Of a DNA stretch of 36,148 nucleotides, positions 17,053 to 31,085 are shown in pieces (position 1 is the first letter of the stretch; each line of letters begins with the position of its first letter). The stretch spans positions 7,273 through 43,420 of the forward strand of contig CAZPQF010000001.1 in the NCBI GenBank assembly GCA_964588735.1. Reading direction: 5' to 3'. A program made the translations under genes and the position numbers. Below the pieces are notes generated by a model. It was not told where the DNA came from. It saw nothing but the letters and a program-made list of their open reading frames with translations, and made no database searches. Source of the stretch: Candidatus Woesearchaeota archaeon. Lineage in GTDB: Archaea > Nanobdellota > Nanobdellia > Pacearchaeales > GW2011-AR1.

Positions 17053-20000
17053 CTATTCCATAAATATCGCCGGCTTATTAGGTTTTGCTTTTTTAGCCCA
17101 GTTATTTGAGTCATATTTTTTCTTGTCTGCAACAGAAAAAATTTCAATTTTCAAATTAGTCCTTTTTCTAATATCTTGGATACTATTTTTATATAACTCT
17201 AATTCCTTAGGCAGAACATAGATATAAGCTCTAGTGGCATATTTACCTTGTTTATCTTTCATTATTTTATTTATATTTTTAATATCCCCAACTAATTTTT
17301 CAACAGCCGCATCTTCTTTTTCAAATTTTTCATTAATCTTCTTCTCATCAACTACAGGCCATTTTTCTAAACTAATAAAATTTTTATTTCCTATTCTATG
17401 CCATAATTCTTCTGTAATATGCGGGCAAAAAACATGTAATAATTTTAAAAAACTTTCTGTATATTTTTTTGAAATTTCTTTATTTTTCAAAGAATCCATT
17501 GATTCAAATAATTCACGAATTTCAATAACAGCTAAATTATATTTAAAATCTTCAATATTTTCTGTTATCTTTTTTATTGTTTTATTAATTTTACTTTCAA
17601 ATCTCTCATTACTTTTTCCAATTTTTTTCTCGATATTTGCAAAATAATCAATAACTTTATTAATAAATTTTAAACTTCCATTAATTCCTTTATCACTCCA
17701 AACAACATCTTTATCAGGACTTGCAGTAGAGACTAAAAACAATCTTGCTGTATCAATACCATATTTTTTAGAGACTTTTTCAGGTAAAACTACATTTCCA
17801 CGAGATTTGCTCATAACAGCGCCGTCAGGACCATGCAACATGCCTTGATTAAATAATTTAATAAAAGGTTCATCACTTTTAATCAAGCCTAAATCTCTTA
17901 AAAATTTGTTATAAAATCTGGCATAAATTAAATGCATACAGGCATGCTCTGCACCGCCAATATATTGATCAACAGGCATCCAATAATTTGCTCTTTTTTT
18001 TTCAAATATTTTTTTTCTATTTTTAGGATCAGCATATCTTAAAAAATACCATGAAGAATTTACAAATGTATCCATTGTATCAGTTTCACGTCGAGCTTTT
18101 CCCTTACATTTAGGACATTTAACATTAACAAAATTTTTATTTGAAAGTAAAGGATTTCCTTTTCCAAATTTAACTTTTTCAGGAAGTTTTACAGGTAATT
18201 GTTTTTCAGGAATTGGAACTATACCGCATTTATCACAATAGACTATTGGAATAGGGGTTCCCCAATATCTTTGACGAGAAATTAACCAATCTTTTAATTT
18301 ATATTGTGTTGTTTCTTTAGCTAATTTTTTGTCTTTTAAATATTTTGTAATTTCTTTTTTAGCTTTTTCATTATTCAAACCATTAAACTTACCAGAATTT
18401 ATTAATTTTCCTTGTTCAATATAAGCTCTTTCATTAATGTTGCCCTTTTCTCCTTTAATTACTCCTTTTATAGGAAGTTTATATTTTTTTGCAAACTCAA
18501 AATCTCTTTGGTCATGTGCTGGAACAGCCATAACCATTCCACTTCCATAATCTGCAACAACAAAATTACCGACCCATATTGGAATTTTTTCATTTGTTAT
18601 AGGATTAATTGAATAACTTCCTGTAAAAACTCCTTGTTTTTCAAGTTCTTCTATATTTTTTTCACTGGTTGATTTTACTTTTGTCAAAAACTTTTCAACC
18701 TGTTTTTTTTGTTTGTCAGTAATTAGATTCATAAGTTGCGGATGTTGTGCGCTTATTACCATAAAAGTAACTCCAAAAAGTGTATCTGGACGTGTTGTAA
18801 ATATCGGCCATTTCTGAACAATTTCATTCAATAATTCTGGAAACTCTTCTGTGCCCATATATCCTTTACAAAAATGCCCATAACCTTTTCCCAAATGAAT
18901 TAATTTTCCACCAAGTTCTTTTTGATATTCATATGCATTAGGAATGTGATAAGATATATCATCATCTGCTGTAAAGATTATAAGTTTATCAAAATTATTT
19001 TTTATATTTAAATCAGCTTTTGAAGCATAAAAATTATTTAATAAATGATTGCTTTCATGACCTGCTTTTCCAGGAGATACTAAAATTAGTTTTTTAATTT
19101 TTTTTCCTGTCTCTGCTAACCATCTAACTAAAAAAGCCCCTCCAGCACTATGCCCAATCAAAATAGTATTTTCATTAACTATTAATTTATCCATAATAGA
19201 TTTCCATTCATCATATTTCGGGGCCCAGGCTGTAGGCATCTCTGGAGTGATAGTTTTAATTCCTCTTTTTTCAAGTTCTCTTTTTAACCATGGAAACCAA
19301 TGATTTAAGCTATGTGGAATATAACCCTTTTCTTTTGTTCTATCTTTAGATGGAGAACCATGAACAATTACAACATTTGAGATTATATTATCAGGAGTTT
19401 CAACCTCAAACATAATCTCTGTTCCATAACTTTTTCCAATCCAATTTTTCTGCATTATTTTAATTCTTTCAGGCCATTTTAATTTTTCAGCATCTTTTAA
19501 TAATTCGTCTGCATATTTTGTAATTTTAAAAAACCATTGTTCTAGATGTTTAATTTCAACTTCTGTATCTTCATGACGCCAGCATTTTCCATTATGAACC
19601 TGTTCATTAGCTAAAACTGTTTTACATTTTTTACACCAATTAACAGGTGCTTTTTTTCTATATGCAAGTCCTTTCTCAAACATTTTAAGAAAAATCCATT
19701 GATCCCATTTATAATAATTTGAATCATGTGTTTTTACAATTCTGCTCCAATCATAACCCAACCCCAATGATTTTTGTTGTTTAATAAAATTTTTAATAGC
19801 ATTTTCAGTAAATTTTTTTGGATGTTGTCCTGCTTTTATTGCAGCATTTTCTGCTGGCAATCCTAAACTATCATAACCCATTGGATATAATACATTAAAA
19901 TTATTCATTCTTTTAAAACGAGCATAAATATCACCTATTGTATAATTAAATGCATGCCCCATATGTAATCCACTTCCACTTGGATATGGAAACATTTCAA

Positions 20001-20130
20001 GAACATAAAATTTCTCTTTTCCTTTTATATTATCTTTAACTTGGAAAATTTTTTTCTTTGCCCATTCTTTCTGCCATTTTCTTTCTATCTTATTAAAATT
20101 GAATTTTGATTTTCCAGTTTTATTTTTCAT
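17053..20130 (-). CDS. leuS: Leucyl-tRNA synthetase (bacterial-type layout) with an embedded alpha/beta serine-hydrolase domain
   Basis: Motifs seen: HMGH (HIGH), the CKKCKT..CWRH zinc cluster, KNWIGKS, TTRPDT and AVPAHDQRDFEFA (CP1 editing), RQRYWGTPIP, the CDKCG..CPKCKG cluster, DTFVNSSWY, VMSKS. About 190 extra residues lie at aa ~250-440. Confidence 0.95.
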   Translation of the reverse strand: MKNKTGKSKFNFNKIERKWQKEWAKKKIFQVKDNIKGKEKFYVLEMFPYPSGSGLHMGHAFNYTIGDIYARFKRMNNFNVLYPMGYDSLGLPAENAAIKAGQHPKKFTENAIKNFIKQQKSLGLGYDWSRIVKTHDSNYYKWDQWIFLKMFEKGLAYRKKAPVNWCKKCKTVLANEQVHNGKCWRHEDTEVEIKHLEQWFFKITKYADELLKDAEKLKWPERIKIMQKNWIGKSYGTEIMFEVETPDNIISNVVIVHGSPSKDRTKEKGYIPHSLNHWFPWLKRELEKRGIKTITPEMPTAWAPKYDEWKSIMDKLIVNENTILIGHSAGGAFLVRWLAETGKKIKKLILVSPGKAGHESNHLLNNFYASKADLNIKNNFDKLIIFTADDDISYHIPNAYEYQKELGGKLIHLGKGYGHFCKGYMGTEEFPELLNEIVQKWPIFTTRPDTLFGVTFMVISAQHPQLMNLITDKQKKQVEKFLTKVKSTSEKNIEELEKQGVFTGSYSINPITNEKIPIWVGNFVVADYGSGMVMAVPAHDQRDFEFAKKYKLPIKGVIKGEKGNINERAYIEQGKLINSGKFNGLNNEKAKKEITKYLKDKKLAKETTQYKLKDWLISRQRYWGTPIPIVYCDKCGIVPIPEKQLPVKLPEKVKFGKGNPLLSNKNFVNVKCPKCKGKARRETDTMDTFVNSSWYFLRYADPKNRKKIFEKKRANYWMPVDQYIGGAEHACMHLIYARFYNKFLRDLGLIKSDEPFIKLFNQGMLHGPDGAVMSKSRGNVVLPEKVSKKYGIDTARLFLVSTASPDKDVVWSDKGINGSLKFINKVIDYFANIEKKIGKSNERFESKINKTIKKITENIEDFKYNLAVIEIRELFESMDSLKNKEISKKYTESFLKLLHVFCPHITEELWHRIGNKNFISLEKWPVVDEKKINEKFEKEDAAVEKLVGDIKNINKIMKDKQGKYATRAYIYVLPKELELYKNSIQDIRKRTNLKIEIFSVADKKKYDSNNWAKKAKPNKPAIFME
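18811..19383 (-). other. In-frame RBBP9/YdeN-type serine hydrolase (Ser_hydrolase alpha/beta fold) domain inside leuS
   Basis: Blocks seen: VVIVHGSP, HWFPWLKRELEKRGIKTITPEMP, TILIGHSAGGAFLVRWLAE (GxSxG; the codons of ILIGHSAG map to 19141-19170), LILVSP, IIFTADDD, GYGHF, EEFPELLNEIV. Confidence 0.8.
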
Positions 20131-20159
20131 TTTATCTTTTATTATAAATAAAATTTGAT

Positions 20160-20453
20160 TTAAATTGTTTGTGTTTTTTGTTCAAGTCTCTGTTTTCTTT
20201 TGAATCTCTCTGCTTTCTTTGCCCGCCCTATTTCAAATTCCTTAATATCTATTTGCGTAGCTTCATCTATAATAAAATCTCCATTATTGGAATGTATCAA
20301 ATTATAGATTCCTTTGATATTATATTGTCTTCCTTTTGAACAAAAATTTCCATCATTATATTTTCCTATCTTTAATGATTCATACCAATCATTCCCAATT
20401 AGATTGCTTATCTTTATTATTTTTCTTGTTTCTCTATTCATTTTTTTCTCCAT
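20160..20453 (-). CDS. Hypothetical protein (97 aa) directly upstream of leuS
   Basis: ORF with a basic C-terminal tail and no recognisable family. An alternative ATG lies 4 codons in. Confidence 0.4.
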   Translation of the reverse strand: MEKKMNRETRKIIKISNLIGNDWYESLKIGKYNDGNFCSKGRQYNIKGIYNLIHSNNGDFIIDEATQIDIKEFEIGRAKKAERFKRKQRLEQKTQTI

Positions 20454-20770
20454 CCATTTTATTTTCTTGTTCTAAGAGTCGCACAGCAATAGCAAAAAAA
20501 TAAAAAAACCATCAAAACATTCATTCCAAAAGATTAAGTGGAATGAAAATTTATAACACGACTAATAGAACCAAGACTAACATAACAACATTCAACATAA
20601 GCATCATCATATTAGCTTTCATAATTTTCCAAGAAACTTAATGTTTATAAAATTATCTTATAATTGCTTCAATACAATTTCTTCAATTCCAGAAACATTT
20701 GCTTTTCTTAGTGCTTTTTGAATATCTTTAATATTATAAGCACCAGAATTTTTTGTAACAATCAAAAACC

Positions 20771-20777
20771 TTAAATA
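20771..20777 (+). promoter_or_regulatory. TATA-like box (TTAAATA) at -29..-23 of the ATG at 20800
   Basis: Supported by spacing, and followed immediately by the palindrome at 20779-20800. Confidence 0.4.
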
Positions 20778-20778
20778 C

Positions 20779-20800
20779 TATGTAACAATTATGTTACATA
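20779..20800. promoter_or_regulatory. Perfect 9-bp inverted repeat TATGTAACA-ATTA-TGTTACATA between the TATA box and the start codon; candidate operator
   Basis: Read directly from the sequence. It overlaps the first ATG (20791) and abuts the second ATG (20800) of the wHTH-MNT gene. Confidence 0.5.
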
Positions 20801-21348
20801 TGGAACAGAAAGATTACAAACTTGAAATTGTGAATGAATTATTAAAAAACACCAAGCATGTAAGAGGAATAGCCAAAAATTTTAATATTAATCATATGCT
20901 AATATCAAGAAAAATAAAAGAACTTGAAAAAGAGAATATTGTTGACTTTAAAAAAGAAGGAAAAAACAAAAGATATTTTCTAAAAAAAACCATAGAAGCG
21001 AAGAATTATATATTTACAGCTGAAAATTATAAATTAAATCAAATATTAAAAAAATATTCAAACTTAAGAAGAATAATTGAAAAAATACAAAAAGACAACA
21101 GAATAAAACTTGCCGTATTATTCGGCTCATATGCTAAAGGTATTGCAAAAAAAGAGAGTGATATAGATATCTACATAAATACAGAAAATCTAAAGATAAA
21201 AAGAGAATTAAGCCAGTTTGACACGCGATTAAGCATAAAAACAGGGAAATATAATAAATCAAGTCTTCTTATAAAAGAGATAGAAAAAAATCACGTAATA
21301 ATAAAAGGAGTTGAATTATACTATAAAAAAAATAAATTTTTTGCATAA
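20791..21348 (+). CDS. wHTH-fused minimal nucleotidyltransferase (MNT component of a HEPN/MNT module)
   Basis: The N-terminal wHTH reads IAKNFNINHMLISRKIKELEKENIV. The nucleotidyltransferase core reads LAVLFGSYAKGIAKKESDIDIYI (GS...DxD). The real start is probably the ATG at 20800 (MEQKDYK). Confidence 0.8.
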   Translation: MLHMEQKDYKLEIVNELLKNTKHVRGIAKNFNINHMLISRKIKELEKENIVDFKKEGKNKRYFLKKTIEAKNYIFTAENYKLNQILKKYSNLRRIIEKIQKDNRIKLAVLFGSYAKGIAKKESDIDIYINTENLKIKRELSQFDTRLSIKTGKYNKSSLLIKEIEKNHVIIKGVELYYKKNKFFA

Positions 21349-21920
21349 GCTGACAAAGGAAAAAAAGTTGGAGATTGTTGAGCCATCTGAAGAAATTAAA
21401 GAATCTTACACCAGAAAATCAGAAAGTAACTTAATTTCCTCTAAAATTCTTCTTGAAAATCAAAAAATCCCTGTGTATTACCAACACTTAAAAGTGTTGG
21501 TTTGTTTTGGGATTTTAGGATGCTCAAGATTGCATTCAACCACATCTTGAAAGATGTGGTTTTCTGCATCAGCAATCTTGACATAACAAACTTGAAGAAG
21601 CAATTGCATTAACTTATTATAGCATGTATCGTATGCTAACCGCCCTATTATTTAAAATAGGGATAAAATGTGAAAATCACTCTGCTTCAATAATTTTATT
21701 AAAAGAGATATTTGACATAGATAATAAAAACATCTCCTTAGCAAAAGAAGAAAGAATAGACAAACAATATTATACTGGATTTCATATAACTAAACGCGAA
21801 GTTATAAGTGCTATAAAAAATGCAGAAATTTTCAATAGCAATCTTCTTGATTTTATCTCAAAATTAAACAATAACAATATAAAAGAGTATAGAGAAAAAT
21901 TCAAAAAAATAATAGAGTAA
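21311..21920 (+). pseudogene. HEPN-domain partner of the MNT gene, interrupted by a 118-nt structured insert (exon-like parts 21311-21463 and 21582-21920)
   Basis: Part 1 (frame 2) ends ...SNLISSKILLENQ. Part 2 (frame 0) is open from 21582 and reads HNKLEEAIALTYYSMYRMLTALLFKIGIKCENHSASIILL...AKEERIDKQYY. Together they form one HEPN-like protein of ~163 aa. The track start at 21311 is a TTG, so the start is uncertain. Confidence 0.7.
21464..21581 (+). other. 118-nt two-hairpin insert splitting the HEPN gene (intron-like or small mobile/structured element)
   Basis: Hairpin 1 (21464-21516) has an AAAATCCC/GGGATTTT outer stem and a CCAACAC/GTGTTGG inner stem. Hairpin 2 (21524-21581) has a TCAAGATTGC/GCAATCTTGA outer stem and an AACCACATCT/AGATGTGGTT inner stem. 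It is visibly more GC-rich than its flanks. Confidence 0.6.
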
Positions 21921-21936
21921 ATACCCGAACCACTAA

Positions 21937-21946
21937 TCTTAAAAAT
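21937..21946 (+). promoter_or_regulatory. TATA-like box (TCTTAAAAAT) at -30..-21 of the endA ATG
   Basis: Supported by spacing only. Confidence 0.4.
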
Positions 21947-21966
21947 CTCCTATTCTTCTTATATTC

Positions 21967-22482
21967 ATGACAATAAAAGCAATTTTTACAGGAGAAAATA
22001 TTTTTAGTAATGCAAAAGATGCATTTGCTCTTTATGAGAAAAGCAGATTTGGAGAACAAAAAGCAGGAAAAATAAAATATGCATTAGTTGAAGCATTATT
22101 TTTAACAAATAAAAATAAAGCAGAGATTTATAGTGGAAATAAAAAATTAACATTTGACCAGCTTTTAAGAAAATGTAAGAAAATAGATAAAAAAATAGAA
22201 ACAAAATTTGCTGTTTTCTCAGATTTAAGAGAAAGAGGATATATTGTTAAAACAGCTCTTAAATTTGGAGCAGACCTTAGAGTATATGATAAAGGAAAAA
22301 AACCAGGACAAGCTCACGCAAAATGGATAGTCTTTCCAGTAAATGAAAATCAGTCTCTTACTTGGCATGAATTTTCCTCAAAAAACAGAGTTGCTCATAG
22401 CACTAAGAAAAATCTTCTAATTGCCATCGTCGATGAAGAGGGAGATTGTACATATTACCAAGTCTCATGGATAAAGCCCTAA
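21967..22482 (+). CDS. endA: tRNA-splicing endonuclease, short single-unit (alpha-type) subunit of 171 aa
   Basis: Motifs seen: LVEALFL, LRERGYIVKTALKFGADLRVYDKG...AHAKWIVFPV, and RVAHSTKKNLLIAIVD. The Y/H/K catalytic contexts are typical of EndA. Confidence 0.85.
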   Translation: MTIKAIFTGENIFSNAKDAFALYEKSRFGEQKAGKIKYALVEALFLTNKNKAEIYSGNKKLTFDQLLRKCKKIDKKIETKFAVFSDLRERGYIVKTALKFGADLRVYDKGKKPGQAHAKWIVFPVNENQSLTWHEFSSKNRVAHSTKKNLLIAIVDEEGDCTYYQVSWIKP

Positions 22483-22803
22483 TCATTTAGCAAAAGTACT
22501 TTTTTCTTCTAAATTTAAATTTTGTTTAGACGAAGTAGCTCCCCATTTTCCAATTTTTTTTTAATTCACTCAATTCTAAAGGTTGTTGTAATTTAGTATC
22601 ACAAAGAATTCCTTTATCATTAAAATATAAAGAACCAACATCAGTCAGAACTTCAATACTTGAATTAATAACATCATTATTATATGCTCTAATTAATGAA
22701 TCATAACTTTACCATTAATAATATAAACCATAAATAGAATTAATTAAATTAATTTATAAAGATTATTATAATAAAGATATCTACTAGACTTCCCTACAAC
22801 AAA

Positions 22804-22811
22804 CTTTATAA
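22804..22811 (+). promoter_or_regulatory. TATA-like box (CTTTATAA) at -30..-23 of the 22834 ATG
   Basis: Supported by spacing only. Confidence 0.4.
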
Positions 22812-22833
22812 CTTTAAAGAATTCTAAATAAAT

Positions 22834-23934
22834 ATGGATATTGAAGCTAAAAAAAAGGTAGAAAATTTTTATGCTAATTTAATAAAAAATAGAAGCAATT
22901 CTCAAAATAAAGAAAATCAAGACTTTTCAAATATAAATCAAGAGAACTCTAATCAAAATAATCCTCCACAATCTAAAGCAAAAGAAGTTCAAGACCACAC
23001 AAAAACAAGAGAAAAAATTTTGCAGGTATTAAAAATAAAGGGCCCTAGTCTGCCTGTACATTTAGCAAGAGAAACAGGCATTAGTATGTTATTTGCTGGT
23101 GCTTTTCTTTCTGAATTAATAAGAGAAAGAGAAGTAAAAACAAGTAATATGAAAGTTGGAGGCTCTCCTATTTACTTAATACCTGGACAAGAATCTAAAC
23201 TTGAAGAATTTGGAGATAAATTTCTTAAAAGTAGAGAAAAAGAAGCATTTTTAAAATTAAAACAAAATAAAGTTTTAAAAGATTCAGAACAAGAACCAGC
23301 AATTAGAGTTGCTCTCCGTTCATTAAGTGACTTTGCATTTCCTTTACAAATTAACAATGAATTATATTGGAGATATTTTTTAACCAAAAATAATGAAACA
23401 ACAGATTTAATCAAAAAATATCAATCAAATAAACAAAATTCAGAAAAATATGGACAACAAGAAAAAATTAAAGAAAAACAAATAATTAAACCGCAAACAA
23501 AAATAAAACAGCCAACAGAAAAAAAATCTGAACAAAAAACAGAAAAAGAATCAGCAAAAGAAAAACCTTTGATTCAAATTAAAGAACAGCAAAAAAAAGG
23601 CAGAAAAAAACAAAAATCAAAATTTGTAAGCAGTGTAATTGAATTTTTACAAATAAATGATATTGAACTTCTAGAAGAAATTAATTTTAAAAAAAGAGAA
23701 TATGAAGCAAAAACAAGAATAAATTCTGATTTGGGAAAAATAAAGTACTATGTAATTGCAAAAAATAAAAAAAGAGTAACAGATAATGATTTAACAATTG
23801 CAAGTCAAAAAAGTCAAGAAGAAAAAATGCCTGTTTTATTTGTTTCAACAGGAAAATTAAACAAAAAAGCTAAAGAATATTTGAAAAATTGGGAAAATTT
23901 AATAGTGTTCAAACAATTAAACAGCAAAGTTTAA
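22834..23934 (+). CDS. Hypothetical winged-helix DNA-binding protein with a K/Q-rich linker and a possibly nuclease-fold C-terminal domain
   Basis: The wHTH-like segment reads REKILQVLKIKGPSLPVHLARETGISMLFAGAFLSELIREREVKTSNMKVGGSPIYLIPGQE. The C-terminal segment EYEAKTRI..KIKYYVIAKNKKRVTDNDL...PVLFVSTGKLNKKAKEYL is reminiscent of Mrr-type restriction-endonuclease-like domains, but this is a weak call. Confidence 0.5.
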   Translation: MDIEAKKKVENFYANLIKNRSNSQNKENQDFSNINQENSNQNNPPQSKAKEVQDHTKTREKILQVLKIKGPSLPVHLARETGISMLFAGAFLSELIREREVKTSNMKVGGSPIYLIPGQESKLEEFGDKFLKSREKEAFLKLKQNKVLKDSEQEPAIRVALRSLSDFAFPLQINNELYWRYFLTKNNETTDLIKKYQSNKQNSEKYGQQEKIKEKQIIKPQTKIKQPTEKKSEQKTEKESAKEKPLIQIKEQQKKGRKKQKSKFVSSVIEFLQINDIELLEEINFKKREYEAKTRINSDLGKIKYYVIAKNKKRVTDNDLTIASQKSQEEKMPVLFVSTGKLNKKAKEYLKNWENLIVFKQLNSKV

Positions 23935-23937
23935 ATA
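23930..23937 (+). promoter_or_regulatory. TATA-like box (TTTAAATA, preceded by AAAG) at -30..-23 of the rps17e ATG
   Basis: Supported by spacing. It overlaps the stop codon of the upstream gene. Confidence 0.4.
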
Positions 23938-23959
23938 TGCTTATAAATAGCAATATAAA

Positions 23960-24136
23960 ATGGGGAGAATAAAATCTACATTAATTAAAAGAACAGCAAG
24001 AAAATTATTAGAAGAAAGTAATAGTTTTAGTGACAATTTTAAAAAAAATAAACAATTGATTGGAAAAACAATGCCTAGTAAAAAACTGAGAAATAAGATT
24101 GCAGGTTATATCACAAGATTAAAAAAACAAAAGTAA
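23960..24136 (+). CDS. rps17e: Ribosomal protein S17e (eS17)
   Basis: Below the track's size cutoff. My translation is MGRIKSTLIKRTARKLLEESNSFSDNFKKNKQLIGKTMPSKKLRNKIAGYITRLKKQK. The MGR..IKR N-terminus and the RNKIAGY motif are typical of archaeal S17e. Confidence 0.8.
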   Translation: MGRIKSTLIKRTARKLLEESNSFSDNFKKNKQLIGKTMPSKKLRNKIAGYITRLKKQK

Positions 24137-24150
24137 TACTAAATAAATTT

Positions 24151-24157
24151 AGGAGGT
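24151..24157 (+). promoter_or_regulatory. Shine-Dalgarno-like AGGAGGT 10 nt upstream of the albA ATG
   Basis: Read directly. This is consistent with albA being an internal gene of an rps17e-albA transcript. Confidence 0.5.
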
Positions 24158-24167
24158 CAGTAATCAA

Positions 24168-24464
24168 ATGGCAGACGAAAAAACAGCAGATAATGTTGTT
24201 TTCATTGGAAACAAACCTTTTATGAACTATGTGACAGGTGTTGTAATGCAATTTGCAACAAAAGGAAGTAAAGACGTGGTGATAAAAGCAAGAGGTAAAT
24301 TTATTGCAAGAGCAGTAGATGTTGCAGAAGTTGCAAGAAAAAGATTTCTAAAAGACCACAAAATAGATGTAAATGACATCAAAATAGACAGTGAAGAATT
24401 TGAAAACAAAGAAGGCAAAAAGGTAAATGTTTCAACAATAGAAATCGCACTTGTTAAGAAATAA
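24168..24464 (+). CDS. albA: DNA/RNA-binding protein Alba
   Basis: NVVFIGNKPFMNYVTGVVMQF...VVIKARGKFIARAVDVAEVARKRF is a typical Alba fold sequence. Confidence 0.9.
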   Translation: MADEKTADNVVFIGNKPFMNYVTGVVMQFATKGSKDVVIKARGKFIARAVDVAEVARKRFLKDHKIDVNDIKIDSEEFENKEGKKVNVSTIEIALVKK

Positions 24465-24493
24465 AAACAATTTATCAATATAAAGATTTTTTC

Positions 24494-24745
24494 TTATTTT
24501 TTATTTTTTATATTTAATTTATTCTTAATTTTTTCAATATCATCATGTATTTCTCTAATTTTTTTATATCTTTTTCTGGATTGAATAAAATTATATATTA
24601 TCCAAATTAAATATAAAGTTAAAACTCCTCCAATCGCTTTAATCATAGTCAATAAAAAATTTAGTTTATCAGCAATATCTCCAGGCAGATTTCCAACAGT
24701 ATTTGTAATTGTTTCCTCCCCTACCATAAAATTCAATGAAAACAA
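24494..24745 (-). CDS. Small membrane protein, hypothetical
   Basis: 83-aa ORF with one central TM helix and a basic C-terminus. Confidence 0.4.
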   Translation of the reverse strand: MFSLNFMVGEETITNTVGNLPGDIADKLNFLLTMIKAIGGVLTLYLIWIIYNFIQSRKRYKKIREIHDDIEKIKNKLNIKNKK

Positions 24746-24782
24746 ACTTTTTAAATGTCTGCTTGCTTCTAAAATCAGTCAT

Positions 24783-24875
24783 GGCTCTGTAGCTCAGCGT
24801 TAGAGCGCCTGTCTCATGAACAGAGGTGATAATTGAGAGAGCAGGAGGTCGGGAGTTAAACTCTCCTCAGAGCCA
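24783..24875 (+). tRNA. tRNA with CAT anticodon (elongator Met or Ile2) carrying a ~21-nt non-canonical intron (about 24824-24844) at the anticodon-stem/variable-loop junction
   Basis: It reads GGCTCTG-TA-GCTC-AGCGTTA-GAGC-G-CCTGT-CTCATGA-ACAG / AGGTGATAATTGAGAGAGCAG / G-AGGTC-GGGAG-TTAAACT-CTCCT-CAGAGCC-A. Removing the insert gives a perfect CCTGT/ACAGG anticodon stem. The D loop lacks the usual GG and the T loop has A where C56 is expected. Confidence 0.7.
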
Positions 24876-24961
24876 TTTTATTTCCTAAAACATATACCCG
24901 AACATAATTAACTATTTAAGCAATTATTTTTATTTATTATTATAAAAACAGGTATATACAA

Positions 24962-25357
24962 ATGATCTGGGGTTTTGAAAAACACAGAATTGTTTCTTTT
25001 ATTATAACAATCTTAATTGCAATACAGATATATTATCTTTCTTCAATACCAGGACAAGTTGGTGGTATAGGAAATATTTGGATATCAAGAGCCTATCATT
25101 TAGCTATATTTTTTCTATTAACATTTTTTTTATTAACAACAATAAAAGGAATTAAAAATATAAAATTAAGACATATTTTAATTGTGTTAACAATAACTAT
25201 TTTTTATGCTATATTTGATGAAATACATCAAACATTTGTTCCTTACAGACATTGCAGTATAATTGATGTTTTAACAGACAGTGCAGGAATTTTAACAGCA
25301 ATATTATTATATAAATTTTTAGAAATAAAACAGCACGAACATGTTATATCAGCCTAA
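24962..25357 (+). CDS. VanZ-like family membrane protein
   Basis: Four TM segments and the FDEIHQTFVPYRHCSIIDVLTDSAG motif. Confidence 0.7.
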   Translation: MIWGFEKHRIVSFIITILIAIQIYYLSSIPGQVGGIGNIWISRAYHLAIFFLLTFFLLTTIKGIKNIKLRHILIVLTITIFYAIFDEIHQTFVPYRHCSIIDVLTDSAGILTAILLYKFLEIKQHEHVISA

Positions 25358-25702
25358 AATTTTTATATTGTCACCTTTTTTTCTAGGTACAATATGTAAA
25401 TGAATATGATTAATTATCTGTCCTGCAGATTTTCCATTATTAATTATTAAATTAAACCCTTCTGCGTCTTTTTTCAATTTTTTTTCAGCAACTTTTTTTG
25501 CAAGAGAAATCATCTCATCACTTAATGAACTTGGCATATGCATTATATTTTCAAAATGTTTTTTTGAAATAATTAAACTATGCCCATCAATAATTGGATT
25601 TTTATCAGGAATTGCAATAAAATTATCATTCTCTTCAATTATATCTGCTGAAATTTCTTTATTCACAATCCTACAAAATATACAATCATTATCAACAGTC
25701 AT
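25349..25702 (-). CDS. HIT-family (histidine triad) nucleotide hydrolase/transferase
   Basis: CIFCRIV at the N-terminus and the histidine triad HIHLHIVPR. Confidence 0.9.
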   Translation of the reverse strand: MTVDNDCIFCRIVNKEISADIIEENDNFIAIPDKNPIIDGHSLIISKKHFENIMHMPSSLSDEMISLAKKVAEKKLKKDAEGFNLIINNGKSAGQIINHIHLHIVPRKKGDNIKILG

Positions 25703-25941
25703 TTTTTCCTCCTATTAGGGTGATGCTTATTGTTAGTATATACTGCAAAATAATAAATAATTGCACCAATTAAATGAAGAAAAATTAATATAAGAATCCA
25801 AACAACTCTCTGATTTTTATCTTTAAAATCTCTTTTTGCACAATCAATTATCATCCAAATCCTAAATATAAAAATCAAAATAAATAAAGTTAATAATACA
25901 ATAATAAGTGCAAAAATATTGAGAGTTAATGTTTGAATCAT
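25699..25941 (-). CDS. Small membrane protein with a PLD-nuclease N-terminal (PLDc_N)-like domain
   Basis: IIDCAKRDFKDKNQRVVWILILIFLHLIGAIIYYF. Its TGA stop overlaps the HIT gene ATG. Confidence 0.55.
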   Translation of the reverse strand: MIQTLTLNIFALIIVLLTLFILIFIFRIWMIIDCAKRDFKDKNQRVVWILILIFLHLIGAIIYYFAVYTNNKHHPNRRKK

Positions 25942-26086
25942 TAAAAAATAAAGACAAAATTAATTTAAAAACCTTATTATATCAATAAATTATTTTTAAT
26001 CTTGAAAGAATAACACCAATTATTCAAATAACATCCATAGAAATATAATTAAAAATAAGAAAAAAATATAAAAATAAATTACCCAC

Positions 26087-26272
26087 TTATCTTCTCTTTT
26101 TCTTTTTTCTTCTTGAAGATTTCTTTTTCCTAGATTTTTTCCTAGCAGGTTTTTTCTTAACTTTCTTTTTCTTTGCTGCTGCTTTTTTATCTTTCTCTAA
26201 TTTTTTTACTTCTTTTTTAAGCTTTTTAATTGCAGCAGAAAACTGCTTAGGTGTTTTAGGTTTTTTTGCCAT
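26087..26272 (-). CDS. 61-aa extremely lysine/arginine-rich basic protein, hypothetical (possible nucleic-acid binder)
   Basis: MAKKPKTPKQFSAAIKKLKKEVKKLEKDKKAAAKKKKVKKKPARKKSRKKKSSRRKKKKRR. Low complexity, so the coding call is tentative. Confidence 0.4.
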   Translation of the reverse strand: MAKKPKTPKQFSAAIKKLKKEVKKLEKDKKAAAKKKKVKKKPARKKSRKKKSSRRKKKKRR

Positions 26273-26363
26273 TTAATCACCCCTTTATTTAGTTAATAAA
26301 ATAAAGAAAAAATACTTTAAAAACTTTTCTTAAAAAAAATTTTTTAAATTTTTAGAAAAAAAT

Positions 26364-27425
26364 TTATTTTTCTAAAAAAATTGTTTGAGTAGGAAATGCA
26401 AAATCTATTCCCTCTTTTTCTATTAATTCTTTTATTTTTAAATTAATATCTTCCTGAACATCCATATAAACATTATAATCATTTGTATCGACGTAATAAA
26501 CTACTTCGAAAATTAGACTAGAGTCTCCAAATTTTTTAAAATGAACCCTATCCAATTTTGTATGTTTTTCATCATCAATAATTTTTTTAACAATCTTTTT
26601 GATTTTCTTTAATTGCTTAACAGAAGTTTTATATTCAACTCCAAATTCAAAAACAACTCTTCTAGAATTCATTTTTTTATAATTATTAATTCTTGTTGAA
26701 GTTAATTCACTATTAGACATAATTAATTCTTGCCCCCCTAATGCCTGTATTCTTGTAGTTTTAATTCCAATATGTTTAACAACCCCCATATCATTTCCTA
26801 TAATAATAAAATCTCCTTCTTTAAATGGCTTATCAAAATAAATTGCAAATGCAGAAAATAAGTCTCCTAAAATATTTTGTAATGCCAAACCTATTGCAAT
26901 TCCTCCAACACCTAAACCAGCAATTAAAGGAGTAATATTAATTCCAAAATTACTCAACACCATTAATAAAGCAACTGACCAAACAATAAGCTTAATTAAA
27001 AATTTCATAACACCAATCATAGATTCACTTGCATGTTCATCTTTCTTCTTTTTTATTTTTTTATATTCTTCAAAACCTTGATTAGAAATATTAATTAATC
27101 CTTGAGCAGCATAATATGCAATAAAAATCACTAATAAATATTTAAGCACATTAGAAAAAGTTTCTGGAAGAATTAAATACAAACTTGCGATGTAAAATGC
27201 TAAATAAATATAAAATGGCCAATGAATTCTTTCAATAAAATCAATCAATACATCATCCCAAGTAGTTTTAGTTTTTTTACTTGCTTTTTTTAAAAAATAT
27301 ACTAAATAAAAATCAAATAAAGTAAAAATAAGAAATAATCCTAAAAACATCCATAAAGCTGTTAAATAATCTCCAATAGTGTTGGATTCCAAAAAAAATG
27401 CTAATAAGTTATTTAAAAAACTCAT
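26364..27425 (-). CDS. Small-conductance mechanosensitive channel (MscS family)
   Basis: N-terminal TM helices, a pore helix GLGVGGIAIGLALQNILGDLFS, and a beta domain FKEGDFIIIGNDMGVVKHIGIKTTRIQALGGQELIMSNSEL. Confidence 0.85.
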   Translation of the reverse strand: MSFLNNLLAFFLESNTIGDYLTALWMFLGLFLIFTLFDFYLVYFLKKASKKTKTTWDDVLIDFIERIHWPFYIYLAFYIASLYLILPETFSNVLKYLLVIFIAYYAAQGLINISNQGFEEYKKIKKKKDEHASESMIGVMKFLIKLIVWSVALLMVLSNFGINITPLIAGLGVGGIAIGLALQNILGDLFSAFAIYFDKPFKEGDFIIIGNDMGVVKHIGIKTTRIQALGGQELIMSNSELTSTRINNYKKMNSRRVVFEFGVEYKTSVKQLKKIKKIVKKIIDDEKHTKLDRVHFKKFGDSSLIFEVVYYVDTNDYNVYMDVQEDINLKIKELIEKEGIDFAFPTQTIFLEK

Positions 27426-27468
27426 GATTATAAAACTTCTTATTTATTTTTATATGTTTGGGTTAATT

Positions 27469-29283
27469 TTATTTTTTTCTTGTTTTTATTTTTTTTCCAG
27501 CTTTATTAAAATTAATTTCATAATTAATTAATTTACTCATAATTTTTTTTAAATCTTTTATCTTAACTCTTATTTGTTGAGTATTATCACGATTTCTAAT
27601 TGTAACATCTTTATTTTTTATGCTATCACCGTCAATAGTTATGCAATATGGTGTTCCTATTTCATCTTGTCTTGCATATCTTCTTCCAATACTAGAAGAT
27701 TCATCATAATAAACATGAAAATCTTTTTTTAGAGAATTATGAATTTCTCTTGCTAGTTTAACAAATTGTTTTTTATTTTTTACAATAGGCAATACTGCTG
27801 CTTTATAAGGAGCAAGTTTATTTGGAAATTTTAAAACAACATTCTCTCTATTTTCATCATATTCATAAGCTTTAACTAAAGCAGCAAGAAAAACTCTTTC
27901 CATTCCAAAAGTTGGTTCAATAACTCTTGGAATAATATTTCTTCCTGTTTTCTCGTCAAATATTTTTAATTTTTTTCCAGATTCTTTAATATGCTGATTT
28001 AAATCATACTGGCCTCTATTAGCATTTCCAGCAACTTCTTGGCTTCCAAAAGGATATCCATAATCAATATCAAAAGTTGCACTTGAATAATGTGATAATT
28101 CATCTTTTGTATGTTCTCTTATTTTTATTTCTTTTAATCCTAAACTATCAAACCACATAATTTGTTCAGCTAACCAATAAGCATGCCATTCTCCTAATTT
28201 TTTTTGCTTTAACATTTGTTTAATAGTTGTTTCTTTTAATTTTCCTTGATTTCCCGCCCTCTCTTTTAATTGCATCTCTTCATTCAATAAATTTAATTTT
28301 AAATTTAAATGTTTATTAGTTAATAATTCACATTTTTTTTCTTCTGGATGAATAAAATATTCAAACTCTCCAATATGAAACTCTCGACTTCGAAATAAAA
28401 AATCTCTTGGAGAAATTTCATTTCTAAAACATCTTCCAATTTGAGCAATACCAAAAGGCAGTCTCATTCTTGAAGTTTCTGCAATTAATTTAAAATCCAT
28501 AAACATAGCTTGTGCAGTTTCTCCTCTTAAATAAGCTATTAAAGGGTTTAATGCTCCTATACTTGTTTTAAATAATAAATTAAATTCTCCCTGACTTTCA
28601 TAATCTCCTCCGCAATCACATTTTACTTTTCCTAATTCACTTTTATCTATTTTAGTAGATTTTTTACATTTCTTACATTTAACTGCAATATCAGAAAAAC
28701 TTTCAACATGCCCAGAAGCTTTCCATGTTTTTGGATGAGAAATTATTGATGCTTCTATACCAACTAAATCTTCTCTTTGATTTACAAAATAATTCCACCA
28801 TTCTTTTTTAATATTATTAAATAATTCAATACCTAAAGGACCAAAATCCCAAAAACCAGCTAATCCTCCATAAATATCTGATGAACGAAAAACAAATCCC
28901 TTTCGTTTACAAAAATTAGTAAGTTCATCAATATTTAATTTTTGTTTTTTAATAATCTCTGATTCTGGTCTTTCTTCAACTTCCTTATTTTTTTCTTTTT
29001 CTTTTTTATTATCTTCCATATGTTTTTTATTTTTTTCTTTATTTTGTTTTTGTGGTTTTTCTTGTTGAATATTTTCTTTTTTATTATCTTCCATATGTTT
29101 TTTATTTTTCTGTGTTTTTAAATTTTTCATATTTTCCATTATCTCTTTTGCTTTTTTCTCAGCTTTTTTCTGATTTTTACCTAAATAAGCAATTGTCTTT
29201 GCCTTAACTTTTCCATCTTTTCTTACAGAACTTCTTAAATAAAAATAATCTTTATCATGAATTTTTTTCTTAACTATGAACAT
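27469..29283 (-). CDS. glyS: Glycyl-tRNA synthetase (archaeal/eukaryal alpha2 type) with a ~115-aa N-terminal extension
   Basis: The core starts near LNIDELTNFCKRKGFVFRSSDIYGGLAGFWDFGPLG. Further motifs: FRNEISPR, the anticodon-binding end AVLPIV..., RYARQDEIGTPYCITID. The upstream 115 aa are in frame with no stop. Confidence 0.9.
   Translation of the reverse strand: MFIVKKKIHDKDYFYLRSSVRKDGKVKAKTIAYLGKNQKKAEKKAKEIMENMKNLKTQKNKKHMEDNKKENIQQEKPQKQNKEKNKKHMEDNKKEKEKNKEVEERPESEIIKKQKLNIDELTNFCKRKGFVFRSSDIYGGLAGFWDFGPLGIELFNNIKKEWWNYFVNQREDLVGIEASIISHPKTWKASGHVESFSDIAVKCKKCKKSTKIDKSELGKVKCDCGGDYESQGEFNLLFKTSIGALNPLIAYLRGETAQAMFMDFKLIAETSRMRLPFGIAQIGRCFRNEISPRDFLFRSREFHIGEFEYFIHPEEKKCELLTNKHLNLKLNLLNEEMQLKERAGNQGKLKETTIKQMLKQKKLGEWHAYWLAEQIMWFDSLGLKEIKIREHTKDELSHYSSATFDIDYGYPFGSQEVAGNANRGQYDLNQHIKESGKKLKIFDEKTGRNIIPRVIEPTFGMERVFLAALVKAYEYDENRENVVLKFPNKLAPYKAAVLPIVKNKKQFVKLAREIHNSLKKDFHVYYDESSSIGRRYARQDEIGTPYCITIDGDSIKNKDVTIRNRDNTQQIRVKIKDLKKIMSKLINYEINFNKAGKKIKTRKK
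29001..29109. repeat. Perfect 34-nt direct repeat (29001-29034 and 29076-29109, period 75 nt) inside the GlyRS N-terminal extension
   Basis: The sequence cttttttattatcttccatatgttttttattttt occurs twice. It encodes KNKKHMEDNKKE twice. Confidence 0.85.
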
Positions 29284-29452
29284 TTTTTTCTAATTCTCCT
29301 AATTTAATTAATAATCCTATCTCAGATTCTTTTTGACAATTTTTACAATAAGGATGTTCTTTAATATCTGGATCAATACAAGGCAAAAAAACTTCTGCTT
29401 GTTTTCCACATACACAACATTTGTAATCTTTTGCATAAATCTCTTTTAACAT
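29270..29452 (-). CDS. Small CxxC...CxxC zinc-ribbon-like protein, hypothetical
   Basis: 60-aa ORF with CCVCG and CKNC pairs. It overlaps the annotated glyS start by 14 nt. Confidence 0.4.
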   Translation of the reverse strand: MLKEIYAKDYKCCVCGKQAEVFLPCIDPDIKEHPYCKNCQKESEIGLLIKLGELEKNVHS

Positions 29453-29556
29453 AAATAAGTAGGCACTACATATTATTTAAATCTTTTTATTACCCACTAC
29501 CAACATAATTTAACCACTACACAAATAAAAGTAGAAAGAGATTTAGGTACTACCAA

Positions 29557-29970
29557 TTATTCGCCGATAACTTTAACTAAAACTCTTTTTTGTCTTTGCC
29601 CGTCAAATTCTCCATAAAATATCTGCTCCCAAGGACCAAAATCTAAATCATTGTTTGTAATTGCAACAACTGTCTCTCTTCCCATTATAGTTCTCCATAA
29701 ATGAGCATAACCATTATCTTCTCCTGTTTTATGATGTTTATAATCATAGTTTTGAGGAGCTAATTTTTCTAACCATTCTAAAAAATCTTCCTGTAAACCT
29801 AATTCAGCATCATTAATAAAAACACTTGCAGTAATATGCATTGCATTAACAACAACAAATCCTTCTTTAATTTCTGATTTTTTAACAATTTCTCTAACTT
29901 GAGAAGTAATATTAATAAATTCATGCCTTTTCTCTGTTTTAAATTTTAAATATTCTGTATATGTTTTCAT
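29557..29970 (-). CDS. YjbQ/UPF0047-family protein (secondary thiamine-phosphate synthase-like)
   Basis: Motifs seen: [63 protein letters not shown]. Confidence 0.85.
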
Positions 29971-29993
29971 TTTTCTTTTTGTTTATAAGATAT

Positions 29994-30263
29994 TTATAAA
30001 TTTTTAAATAAAAACCAAATTCCAAATATAACAACCATAATAATTAACCAAGTCCAAAACATTTTTTTACTTGAGAAAAATCCAATTGGAATAGGCCCAA
30101 TAAACCCTCCAATAGCATATTCTGCTTTGCCTTTTATTCTATCACTACTATTTCCAGCAATAACTGAACCTATGATTAACAATAACATACCAATTAAAAC
30201 AAAAAATAAACCTATAATAATTATTGAATTCTGCATTTTATTTCTGAATTTTATTTTCTTCAT
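29994..30263 (-). CDS. Small membrane protein (DUF131-like), hypothetical
   Basis: Two TM helices flanking GGFIGPIPIGF. An internal ATG at 30236 (MQNSIII) would remove the 26-nt overlap with the MazG-like gene. Confidence 0.45.
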   Translation of the reverse strand: MKKIKFRNKMQNSIIIIGLFFVLIGMLLLIIGSVIAGNSSDRIKGKAEYAIGGFIGPIPIGFFSSKKMFWTWLIIMVVIFGIWFLFKNL

Positions 30264-30615
30264 TCCAGTCTATTTTAGTGTTGTTTCTTTTTGCATTATT
30301 AATTGTAAAACCATTGGGAAATCTTTTTTTTAATTTATCTAAATTTTCATTTAAAATATCTTGTAGATTCCAATTATAAAAATTACATATCATAGCAGCA
30401 TACCATAATGTATCTCCAATATTTTCCCTAATTCCATGTTTTTGATCATTATTATGTGCATATGTTTTTTTAATACATGCTGCAACATCTCCTGCTTCAC
30501 TAGCAATACCCAGCCCCCAAGTTAAAATTTCTTTTTCATCTGTTTCAAATTTCTTAGCAGTCTTTCTGCATAATTCTTGATACTCTTTTAAATTATTTGG
30601 TTTTTCTTCTTCCAT
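30238..30615 (-). CDS. MazG-like nucleoside-triphosphate pyrophosphohydrolase
   Basis: GLGIASEAGDVAACIKK...RENIGDTLWYAAMICNFYNWNL shows the EAG(D/E) and (E/D)xxGDxLWY helices of the all-alpha NTP-PPase fold. Confidence 0.8.
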   Translation of the reverse strand: MEEEKPNNLKEYQELCRKTAKKFETDEKEILTWGLGIASEAGDVAACIKKTYAHNNDQKHGIRENIGDTLWYAAMICNFYNWNLQDILNENLDKLKKRFPNGFTINNAKRNNTKIDWNEENKIQK

Positions 30616-30691
30616 CTTATCAAATTGTGTTATTTATTAATTTTAATTTTAATTTTGTCAATCTTAAGCCTAATTCAAAGGAAGTTGAACA

Positions 30692-30835
30692 AGCGCAGGG
30701 TGGGACTCGAACCCACGAAAAGTTGGTATTTGCTCAACTCACCCATGAGGTAATCTCTAGGGAGGTTGACGGTTAAGGAACCGTTAGGTGCCTTACCTCT
30801 GCAACCAACCGCAGTAGCCGCTGTGCCACCTGCGC
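30692..30835 (-). tRNA. tRNA-Cys(GCA) with a ~71-nt intron at the canonical 37/38 position (about 30728-30798)
   Basis: The reverse strand reads GCGCAGG-TG-GCAC-AGCGGCTA-CTGC-G-GTTGG-TTGCAG / insert / A-CCAAC-TTTTC-GTGGG-TTCGAGT-CCCAC-CCTGCGC-T. The discriminator is U73, as expected for Cys. A TTTTAAATA box lies at -32..-24. Confidence 0.8.
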
Positions 30836-30882
30836 ATAAATATTCAAAAAACAAATGTTATTTAAAATGTTTGGTGAGGCAT

Positions 30883-30958
30883 AGTAGCCGCCGAGCATTT
30901 GCACGAGACAAAATTAAATTAATAACGAGTGTAAGTGGGAGATGTGCCACCTGCGCAT
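30883..30958 (-). other. Partial paralog of the tRNA-Cys 5' end (acceptor 5' strand plus D arm) split by a 51-nt insertion
   Basis: The 16-nt exact repeat tgtgccacctgcgcat occurs at 30822-30837 and 30943-30958. The D-loop block agtagccgc occurs at 30813-30821 and 30883-30891. No anticodon or T arm follows. Confidence 0.55.
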
Positions 30959-30974
30959 TTTTGTTTTTTAAACA

Positions 30975-31085
30975 TGGACCCGACAGGATTTGAACCTGCG
31001 ACTTCTAGCTTTCCTCATCTTCTCCATTATTAAAGAGGAGAGGTTGTAGAAGGCTAGCGCTCTATCCAAGCTGAGCTACGGATCC
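30975..31085 (-). tRNA. tRNA-Arg(TCT) with a ~36-nt intron at the canonical 37/38 position (about 31011-31046)
   Basis: The reverse strand reads GGATCCG-TA-GCTC-AGCTTGGATA-GAGC-G-CTAGC-CTTCTA / insert / A-GCTAG-AAGTC-GCAGG-TTCAAAT-CCTGT-CGGGTCC-A. Confidence 0.85.

Follow-up and report, generated by a model that had tools for sequence, protein, structure and literature searches.

Does the interrupted HEPN toxin gene of a Candidatus Woesearchaeota archaeon carry an intron, or has it been hit by a piece of mobile DNA? The gene lies in a stretch of 36,148 nt (contig CAZPQF010000001.1 of assembly GCA_964588735.1, positions 7,273 to 43,420; hereafter the window, with positions counted from its first letter), and its coding sequence is split by two long hairpins. 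A preliminary description, made from the sequence alone, offered three explanations: an archaeal mRNA intron of the bulge-helix-bulge (BHB) type, cut by the tRNA splicing endonuclease EndA encoded next door; a small, structured, non-autonomous mobile element; and an inactivating or regulatory insertion that keeps the toxin silent. The second is strongly supported by hundreds of related copies in different contexts, and we put at about 0.85 the probability that a mobile DNA element, non-autonomous and present in many copies, has inserted one of these in the toxin gene at 21461-21584. Groundwater DPANN archaea (Woesearchaeota/Nanoarchaeota-like genomes) commonly carry the family, which has precise ends, a defined target and covarying structure, is depleted in genes and has no BHB. 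The exciting reading of an mRNA intron in a DPANN archaeon gives way to the ordinary knock-out of a toxin gene by a transposable element.

Compared with the closest intact gene, at locus L001, the window shows in the DNA alignment a clean insertion of 124 nt. The empty site in L001 reads ...CTTGAAA[AT]AATAAG..., with a single AT, as against AT on both sides in the filled site, owing to which the junction slides by 2 nt; judged from the sequence, the insertion would be either 124 nt without duplication or a 122-nt element plus an AT duplication. That there is no obvious target-site duplication, as had been stated, is not assertable with AT on both sides, although 124 nt without duplication also fits. 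The insert had originally been delimited as 118 nt (21464-21581); the insertion is real, but the homolog alignments extend it to 124 nt. Its deletion does restore a continuous HEPN open reading frame (ORF), which matches Pfam HEPN (PF05168, E 1.5e-7), but only the longer deletion leaves the proper junction: the intact homologs read KILLEN--NKLEEA, and removal of 118 nt would give KILLENQHNKLEEA, with two extra codons and hence two extra residues.

The joined ORF has 1816 homologs in the protein collection, the best of which are 70-80% identical, ~156 aa long and uninterrupted. From the 120 listed matches of 143-176 aa, 19 intact homologs (66-80% identity) were aligned, and the window HEPN matches all 47 columns invariant among them. 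Uninterrupted orthologs, which the preliminary description had proposed to look for, thus exist as proteins and, in L001, at the DNA level; an insert at the same position was seen in 0 of the 19. The pairing of CTTCTT with AAGAAG across the insert, pointed out earlier, exists, but it is not a feature of the insert and says nothing on it, because these are conserved Leu-Leu/Glu-Glu codons that are also present in the uninterrupted L001.

The insert consists of two hairpin modules, A and B, and a linker (Table 1). The hairpins were located at the positions first noted for them, and all four stems are perfect. As also noted earlier, the insert is more GC-rich than its surroundings (36% vs 25-26%) and has no terminal inverted repeats, its ends not being complementary. 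As RNA, the 118-nt stretch folds with a minimum free energy (MFE) of -45.5 kcal/mol (z = -6.6; 0/200 shuffles as good), and its minus strand folds equally well (z = -7.8). Within the linker, GAT (21519-21521) can pair with the 5' junction ATC (21459-21461), and ATG (21520-21522) with the 3' terminal CAT (21582-21584); in the family consensus fold, the junction AT pairs with the AT of the GGATG linker. Neither repeat finding nor a covariance model with filters off gave a second copy in the window, and Rfam returned only tRNAs and chance-level matches (whole window at gathering thresholds; 20000-32000 at E up to 5). A two-hairpin guide RNA of the H/ACA type was rejected by inspection: there is no ACA/ANA box at the right distance and no K-turn, the upper stems are perfect and Rfam gives no match.

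The search for other copies, as first proposed, was successful both in a Woesearchaeota metagenome-assembled genome (MAG) and in groundwater metagenome contigs. The core of hairpin B recurs on three contigs of that one MAG, where the copies start alike at the 5' end (AT^CAAAAAG; ^ marks a boundary), closely resemble the window copy in module B and also share its 3' end ATCTTGACAT; they come in two-module (A+B) and four-module (A+C+D+B) versions, near gene starts and ends, and once in tandem. Metagenome contigs from groundwater projects (Rifle, Hainich, others) contain at least 120 stretches with the family pattern, which spanned the A/B joint and the 3' end and in which GGATG, TCAAGAT and ATCTTGACAT were fixed, with the 5' start, the flanks and all covarying stems left unconstrained. 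Among the matches listed, there are 130 pattern copies, 124 of them distinct; a viral contig collection gave no matches with two patterns.

A covariance model, R1, was built from 51 full two-hairpin copies. The window copy scores 114.6 bits against it (E 4.5e-21) and is the only significant one in the window; the reverse strand reaches 35.3 bits, which marks the family as strand-asymmetric. Across 615 kb of loci, R1 finds 142 matches, a few of which are reverse-strand echoes of the same copies, and adds ~25 copies missed by the pattern, roughly one extra per 25 kb. Single contigs can carry two or three near-identical copies (for example, L047, L121, L112). The window copy is 87-90% identical to those of L094 and L105, and the stem differences are compensatory.

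Across the family, the element is 72-180 nt long and starts with CAAAAA right after AT; it ends with ATCTTGACAT, usually right before AA (CTTGACAT^AA). The A-type left end consists of ATCAAAAAG and a hairpin, the B-type right end of TCAAGAT...ATCTTGACAT, and CAAAAAG... and ...CTTGACAT are not complementary, so that terminal inverted repeats are absent family-wide. Two obligatory hairpins are joined by GGATGY and may contain optional nested hairpin modules. The outer stem of hairpin A is, for example, AAAAGTCC/GGACTTTT or AAACACGATGYGCC/GGCRCTCGTGTTT, with an optional inner hairpin ACC-stem-TTAAAA-stem-GGTTTG; that of hairpin B is TCAAGATnn/nnATCTTGA, with an optional inner CC-stem-CTAAAG-stem-GGTTTTC, after which the element ends with CAT. 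Forms as short as 72-80 nt, which have no inner hairpins, are found at many different loci.

Some copies are composite (L048 4819-4985; L049 597-761; L026 2784-2933; L044 3841-4016; L018 3729-3970), having extra hairpin pairs nested in the apical loop of hairpin A or placed between stem A and the GGATG linker; at one composite locus, two tandem elements have a single common AT. The extra modules often read ATCAAR...YTTGRATG, which is hairpin A in miniature, and the basic unit from which the elements are built, or which moves, may be a single hairpin. At L048 3577-3745, upstream of a small cassette of two genes, there is a different multi-hairpin element, which starts with ATCACAAAACCC and has at least four stem-loops; these organisms may thus harbour another repeat family, related to the first but distinct from it. 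Three further occurrences of the palindromic core of hairpin B (20 nt, CCACATCTTGAAAGATGTGG), at a spacing of ~99-109 nt, are in MAG contigs of Anaerolineae/Chloroflexota (L014 3433-3650; L023 876-1107), where the core may belong to some unrelated repeat of tandem or CRISPR-like type.

The stems are maintained by compensatory change. In the 51-copy alignment, which has five consensus helices, 22 of the 33 consensus pairs show compensatory double changes; 96.7% of the cells are paired, compared with 77.7% in column shuffles and at most 46% when the partners are slid by 1-3 columns. Double-change cells number 316 vs ~97 expected, a value reached in 0/500 shuffles. Both stems of module A covary (helices 2 and 3; 13/14 pairs with compensatory changes), as do the inner stem and the two innermost outer-stem pairs of module B (helices 4 and 5), and helix 1, formed by the 5' ATC including the flanking AT and the linker GAT, is found in 51/51 copies. 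There is no sign that one transcribed strand is selected, because G-U cells (~28) are no commoner than A-C cells (~28).

The insertion site is defined too. From anchored half-model hits reaching the element ends, the flank logo is A-n-A-T ^ A-A-n-a-A, with A at 74/75 for position -2, 89/117 for +1, 111/117 for +2 and 91/117 for +5, and the window site GAAAAT^AACAAA fits the target ANAT^AA(nnA). ANAT, upstream of the element, is similar to ACAT at its end, and on the opposite strand there is a likeness between TTAT and the terminal TGAT.

To count genic copies, each copy was deleted in silico and an open frame of at least 40 codons was required on each side. Only 8 of the 124 copies were positive, two of which are artefacts, leaving ~6 genic copies (Table 1) and ~94% intergenic ones. 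In the same loci, 66% of the candidate targets ANAT^AANNA and 70% of AT^AA are located inside ORFs, so that ~82-87 genic copies would be expected if insertion were harmless (binomial p about 1e-47). Because ~6 remain despite this abundance of genic targets, genic insertions are evidently purged, which argues against a harmless removal at the RNA level. The three in-frame, stop-free copies (L064, L040, L073) appear to be translated, adding 24-54 residues. A comparison of the protein collection (5.8 billion) with eight subfamily representatives, translated in sense and antisense, gave 4607 word-sharing candidates and none with E up to 1, the element-derived tails being too short to score. Orientation relative to the neighbouring genes is random (48/44 upstream, 55/45 downstream); same-contig pairs of copies, hand-tallied as a proxy for lagging-strand bias, number ~23 in the same vs 15 in opposite orientation, which is not informative.

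Table 1. Coordinates of the insert, its genic relatives and the neighbouring features (window positions unless a locus is named)
Feature	Position	Strand	Details
Inserted element	21461..21584	+	124 nt, CAAAAAATCCC...AATCTTGACAT; two-module (A+B) copy of the repeat family
AT dinucleotide, 5' junction	21459..21460	+	repeated at 21583-21584; duplicated target or sliding ambiguity
Hairpin module A	21464..21516	+	outer AAAATCCC/GGGATTTT (21464-21471/21509-21516); inner ACCAACACT/AGTGTTGGT (21480-21488/21493-21501); loop TAAA
Linker GGATGC between modules	21518..21523	+	from consensus fold and MFE of the 124-mer
Hairpin module B	21524..21581	+	outer TCAAGATTGC/GCAATCTTGA (21524-21533/21572-21581); inner AACCACATCT/AGATGTGGTT (21538-21547/21552-21561); loop TGAA
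Genic copy, window			HEPN gene; sense; 124 nt, frame-breaking
Genic copy, L030	L030 3901-3991		PBECR2 toxin-type nuclease gene (Pfam); sense; 91 nt, frame-breaking
Genic copy, L050	L050 2710-2787	-	histidine phosphatase gene (Pfam); sense; 74 nt, frame-breaking
Genic copy, L064	L064 529-604		ORF without Pfam match; sense; 72 nt, in-frame, read through
Genic copy, L040	L040 1256-1379	-	chorismate mutase gene (Pfam); antisense; 120 nt, in-frame
Genic copy, L073	L073 5091-5256		LAGLIDADG/intein-like region of a 1385-codon ORF (motif by eye); antisense; 162 nt, in-frame
wHTH-MNT nucleotidyltransferase gene	20791..21348	+	intact, 185 aa, antitoxin partner; Pfam Polbeta 3.1e-11, NTP_transf_2 1.8e-9
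HEPN gene, 5' part	21311..21460	+	ends at Asn codon AAT (...KILLEN); ORF list, protein and DNA alignments
HEPN gene, 3' part	21585..21920	+	NKLEEAIALTYY... to stop codon; free of further lesions
tRNA gene, BHB intron at 37/38	2609-2714	-	canonical; intron 34 nt
tRNA gene, BHB intron at 37/38	24783-24875	+	canonical; intron 21 nt
tRNA gene, BHB intron at 37/38	30692-30835	-	canonical; intron 71 nt
tRNA gene, BHB intron at 37/38	30975-31085	-	canonical; intron 36 nt

Taken as a whole, the properties of the family are those of a selfish non-autonomous DNA element harmful in genes, not those of an intron or of a strand-specific functional RNA, and the HEPN insertion is one of the rare genic survivors, for which a tolerated loss of the toxin is the simplest reason. 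The 5' frame of the gene as it stands enters the insert, with the stop codon TGA at 21548-21550; the insertion would shift the frame and truncate the toxin after residue 50. The element has most likely just knocked out a dispensable toxin gene, as far as can be read from the DNA. The window copy is probably recent, to judge from its perfect stems, four in all, and from the absence of any further lesion in the host gene, and the insertion presumably persists because the loss of the toxin does no harm while the antitoxin remains. A second copy disrupts another toxin-like nuclease gene (PBECR2, L030).

How such an element might move is best approached from the IS200/IS605 family, in which a Y1 HUH transposase reads hairpins on single-stranded DNA in a peel-out-paste-in manner and DNA guides beside the hairpins pair with the transposon-adjacent motif (TAM) and the transposon-encoded motif (TEM), without target duplication and with scarless excision (PMC10055086). 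By analogy, the element would move as single-stranded DNA via a hairpin-recognising HUH-type transposase supplied in trans, the GGATG linker would serve as a DNA guide for the cleavage sites at either end (AT^C and CAT^), with which it would pair, and no scar would be left by excision. We adopt this IS200/IS605-like model for the mobilisation of the family tentatively, at somewhat less than even odds; the remaining probability goes to a recombinase that duplicates 2 bp or uses a 2-nt core, or to a mechanism not yet described. That this family of modular hairpins without terminal inverted repeats is moved by an enzyme or mechanism new for archaeal repeats is doubtful, and still considerably likelier than its removal at the RNA level.

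Several points weigh against the mobile-element reading or against this form of it. Firstly, GGATG and ATCTTGACAT were set by the search pattern, so that their invariance is partly circular; GGATG is also present in the L008 copy and in one L018 copy, which were found with a different pattern, and before module B the copy of L015 and the first of those on L018 read TGTGC in place of the GGATG linker. TCAAGAT and ATCTTGACAT, too, recur in the MAG copies, for which that other pattern was used. Secondly, all three frame-breaking genic copies are in sense orientation, which has a chance of 1 in 8, yet is what removal at the RNA level would predict. Thirdly, neither the window nor ~830 kb of loci with copies yielded any kind of transposase, an absence from this sample that is no proof of absence. 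Pairing of half-models revealed no separated A...B end pairs around an ORF, the copy-bearing loci contain no IS-sized high-identity repeats, a regex screen gave no ORF fitting a loose HUH/Y1 pattern, and Pfam recognised no transposase or recombinase domain in the 23 window ORFs, six of which have no Pfam match. A 1.4-kb candidate for an autonomous parent in L048 turned out to be two unrelated copies around the small two-gene cassette and a tRNA. A zinc-ribbon pattern at the C-terminus occurs in two ORFs, neither of which looks like TnpB, one being a Peptidase_M28 (Pfam) and the other having been judged by its sequence only. Because no transposase was found, the link to IS200/IS605 is one of resemblance only. 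Fourthly, the hairpins abut the ends (at most 3 nt), compared with a spacing of 10-19 nt in IS608-type elements, and the downstream AA flank is conserved too, which classical IS200/IS605 targeting does not predict unless the bottom strand is active (TAM TTAT, TEM TGAT). Finally, AT on both sides is compatible with a 2-nt AT duplication.

Among known elements, the closest class are the palindrome-associated transposable elements (PATEs), non-autonomous derivatives of the IS200/IS605 type reported from Haloquadratum walsbyi (PMC3119063) and mentioned for Geobacillus (PMC10055086). PATEs have no inverted terminal repeats, carry palindromes near their termini, cause no target duplication and are too short to code, with sizes down to 52 bp; they possess a conserved terminal oligonucleotide, and other small repeats nest in their palindromes (PMC3119063). 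The family resembles them in its non-coding length, its lack of terminal inverted repeats, its hairpins near both ends and its conserved terminal oligonucleotide; in its short specific target, its many dispersed copies in homogeneous as well as heterogeneous subfamilies and, as far as the AT on both sides allows, the absence of a clear target duplication; in the nesting of other small repeats inside palindromes; and in a motif beside the hairpin foot that can pair with the cleavage sites, as DNA guides do with TAM and TEM. It differs in that no IS200/IS605 transposon with matching ends was found for it, nor tnpA or tnpB, in hairpins located within 3 nt of the ends and not 10-20 nt away, in a single common linker that would have to guide both ends, in conservation on both sides of the insertion point (ANAT^AA) and in an unusual modular build with optional inner hairpins and extra hairpin pairs. 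The family is filed as PATE-like.

Classical miniature inverted-repeat transposable elements (Correia, Stowaway/Tc1-IS630-derived) are likewise small, non-coding, multi-copy, mostly intergenic, foldable and occasionally gene-disrupting, and a 2-bp duplication is possible in our family; in contrast to them, its 5' CAAAAAG and 3' CTTGACAT do not form terminal inverted repeats, its model is strand-asymmetric (see the R1 scores above) and the flanking dinucleotide is AT, not TA. This class was rejected for want of terminal inverted repeats, with only the AT repeat as a possible 2-bp duplication. The pneumococcal BOX elements and the repetitive extragenic palindromes (REPs) with their bacterial interspersed mosaic elements (BIMEs) share hairpin modules in variable number, a high copy number and an intergenic location; REPs, associated with REP-associated tyrosine transposases (RAYTs; PMC8266576), are believed to owe their movement to a domesticated HUH (IS200-like) enzyme. 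Our family, however, is archaeal; its ends are precise, its insertion site is defined and can be compared with an empty one, no RAYT-like gene was seen and its modules are co-oriented, not alternating. The shared AT and the absent terminal inverted repeats would be compatible with an IS110-type 2-nt core; an IS110-type bridge RNA seems unlikely by inspection, the conserved unpaired stretches (TTTG, TTTTC, YTAAAR) of 3-5 nt appearing too short to specify both target and donor and no recombinase gene being seen. No description of the repeat family was found in the literature searched.

Groundwater DPANN genomes contain the family in great abundance, with about one copy for every 25 kb of flanking DNA, and it is noteworthy for combining precise ends and a defined target with the lack of inverted repeats, an unusually clear covariation and a modular nested build. 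It offers a tractable case of how symbionts with small genomes and few or no visible transposases host proliferating repeats, and if the IS200/IS605-like model is true, it would provide hairpin-guided single-strand transposition with a natural substrate of minimal length (~72 nt). Split genes in DPANN MAGs should be compared with this family before introns, frameshifts or assembly errors are called.

Could the insertion be domesticated, either as a reversible switch operated by scarless excision or as a structured RNA keeping the toxin off? Excision in the IS200/IS605 manner would restore the ORF exactly (PMC10055086), the host HEPN ORF is otherwise intact, and two of the five or six genic copies are located in toxin-type nuclease genes. 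Such an enrichment is, however, more simply explained by tolerated toxin loss; the site is not conserved, the relatives have no insert and no excising transposase was detected. We therefore consider regulation improbable: of the third explanation offered originally, the inactivation of the toxin stands, as a consequence of a mobile insertion, but there is no sign that the silencing is regulated.

More improbable still is an excision at the RNA level that does without a BHB, in which sense copies would be cut from transcripts by some activity yet to be named, or by self-cleavage and ligation, guided by the ends and GGATG. It accommodates the frame-breaking copies in the window, L030 and L050, which are all sense, as well as the two antisense genic copies (L040, L073), which are both in-frame and stop-free; the linker able to pair with both ends would bring these together, and the host HEPN gene shows no other decay. 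The sample, however, consists of six copies, 3/3 sense has p = 0.125, and the sense copy of L064 is in-frame and stop-free, as if it needed to be translated through. Genic copies are ~14-fold depleted relative to target availability, which is unexpected if sense copies were harmless, the orientation towards flanking genes is unbiased, there is no one-strand G-U excess, and no Rfam ribozyme or other RNA family matches. It is the sense orientation of all three frame-breaking genic copies, and only this, that keeps the reading alive. There is accordingly a very slim chance, judged from sequence, that the element would be a mobile intron-like unit of archaeal protein-coding genes and that the interrupted HEPN would still be expressed.

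The BHB intron, cut by the adjacent EndA with ligation of the exons into a functional toxin mRNA, is close to refuted. In its favour, the EndA gene (Pfam tRNA_int_endo 1.5e-29) adjoins the HEPN gene, starting 47 nt downstream, the genome is intron-rich, with introns in all four window tRNA genes, and removal of the insert restores the HEPN ORF. The cbf5 introns of Crenarchaeota are a precedent in archaeal pre-mRNA (PMC2738675), and the likeness extends to a short structured insert in an archaeal ORF, a frame restored by removal, and EndA together with many tRNA introns; the window insert differs from them by having no BHB, by not being conserved in orthologs and by being a dispersed intergenic repeat. 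We scored BHBs by a geometry in which an exon helix, a central helix of 4 bp and an intron helix are combined with bulges of 3 nt whose second base precedes the cut. As a positive control, 4/4 tRNA introns in the window were recovered (H 4/4, exon helices 4-6 bp), and because all four score as canonical, the endonuclease substrates of this organism are canonical and the scorer is able to find them. At the three junction pairs allowed by homology (21458-21460 / 21582-21584), in contrast, there is no BHB, even when bulges of 2-4 nt, 3/4 central pairs and shifted cuts are allowed, and a wider strict scan gave nothing usable; that no canonical motif could be built at the junctions had already been stated, and it remains so under relaxed rules. 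Each locus gives the element different flanks, which precludes an exon-intron helix common to the family; orthologs are without the insert, and ~94% of the copies are intergenic, with genic ones purged.

The window EndA is a single-unit protein of 171 aa. Such alpha4 EndAs are classically strict for the canonical motif. Some of those in DPANN, however, have an additional loop that is linked to more disrupted tRNA genes (PMC5829648), a point for the intron, and our case against it does not rest on the type of EndA. The argument from neighbourhood is weak: the proximity of EndA, read at first as a hint of an intron, seems coincidental, the MNT-HEPN cassette having other neighbours in relatives.

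Programmed translational bypassing, with take-off at Asn AAU (21458-21460) and landing at AAC (21585-21587) after the manner of phage T4 gene 60 or of mitochondrial 'byp' elements, hardly deserves consideration, for although the insert is structured and GC-richer than its AT-rich gene and the flanking codons seen in the sequence would be read by the same tRNA, the gap is 124 nt, compared with ~50 nt or less in the known cases, the take-off codon is followed by CAA and not by a stop codon, the product would be one Asn short relative to homologs and the family is mostly intergenic.

The chromosome around the HEPN locus is AT-rich (26% GC) and of ordinary archaeal gene content, including GatB/E, ProRS, deoxyhypusine synthase, Nre, TFE-alpha, AlaRS, LeuRS, EndA, RNase Z and MscS; in their sources, proteins homologous to those encoded here bear the name Woesearchaeota or Nanoarchaeota. 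The product of the MNT gene shows N-terminal HTH matches (Pfam), and the pair of MNT and HEPN genes recurs in relatives. The cassette is ~80% identical in DNA across genomes (L002-L006, around 4469-5471 in L002, vs window 20791-21920), and its neighbours are unrelated, being TrmB and a cation ATPase in relatives and LeuRS and EndA in the window, because of which the cassette itself seems to move between sites. The assemblies index contains no exact record of the window EndA, MNT or C-terminal HEPN fragment. At the usual position of the HEPN start codon, ATG is replaced by ATA in the window (21311-21325) as well as in the closest relative (L001 519-533), and the sole in-frame upstream start is a TTG abutting GGAG and overlapping the end of the MNT gene, which may represent an attenuated or non-canonical toxin start in this lineage.

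Two further observations concern the tRNA genes and the synthetase of the window. ARAGORN detects 1/4 of the tRNA genes, and in the tRNA with the GCA anticodon the scorer proposes another BHB-like candidate, of 30 nt, which would be cut on its 5' side 1 nt upstream of the 5' cut of the 71-nt intron. LeuRS (window 17053-20130, minus strand, 1025 aa) contains a serine hydrolase or alpha-beta hydrolase domain (Pfam Ser_hydrolase PF06821, E 1.2e-11, residues 269-421, nucleophile motif GHSAGG) between the first catalytic half and the editing domain, a fusion that is unusual for an aminoacyl-tRNA synthetase.

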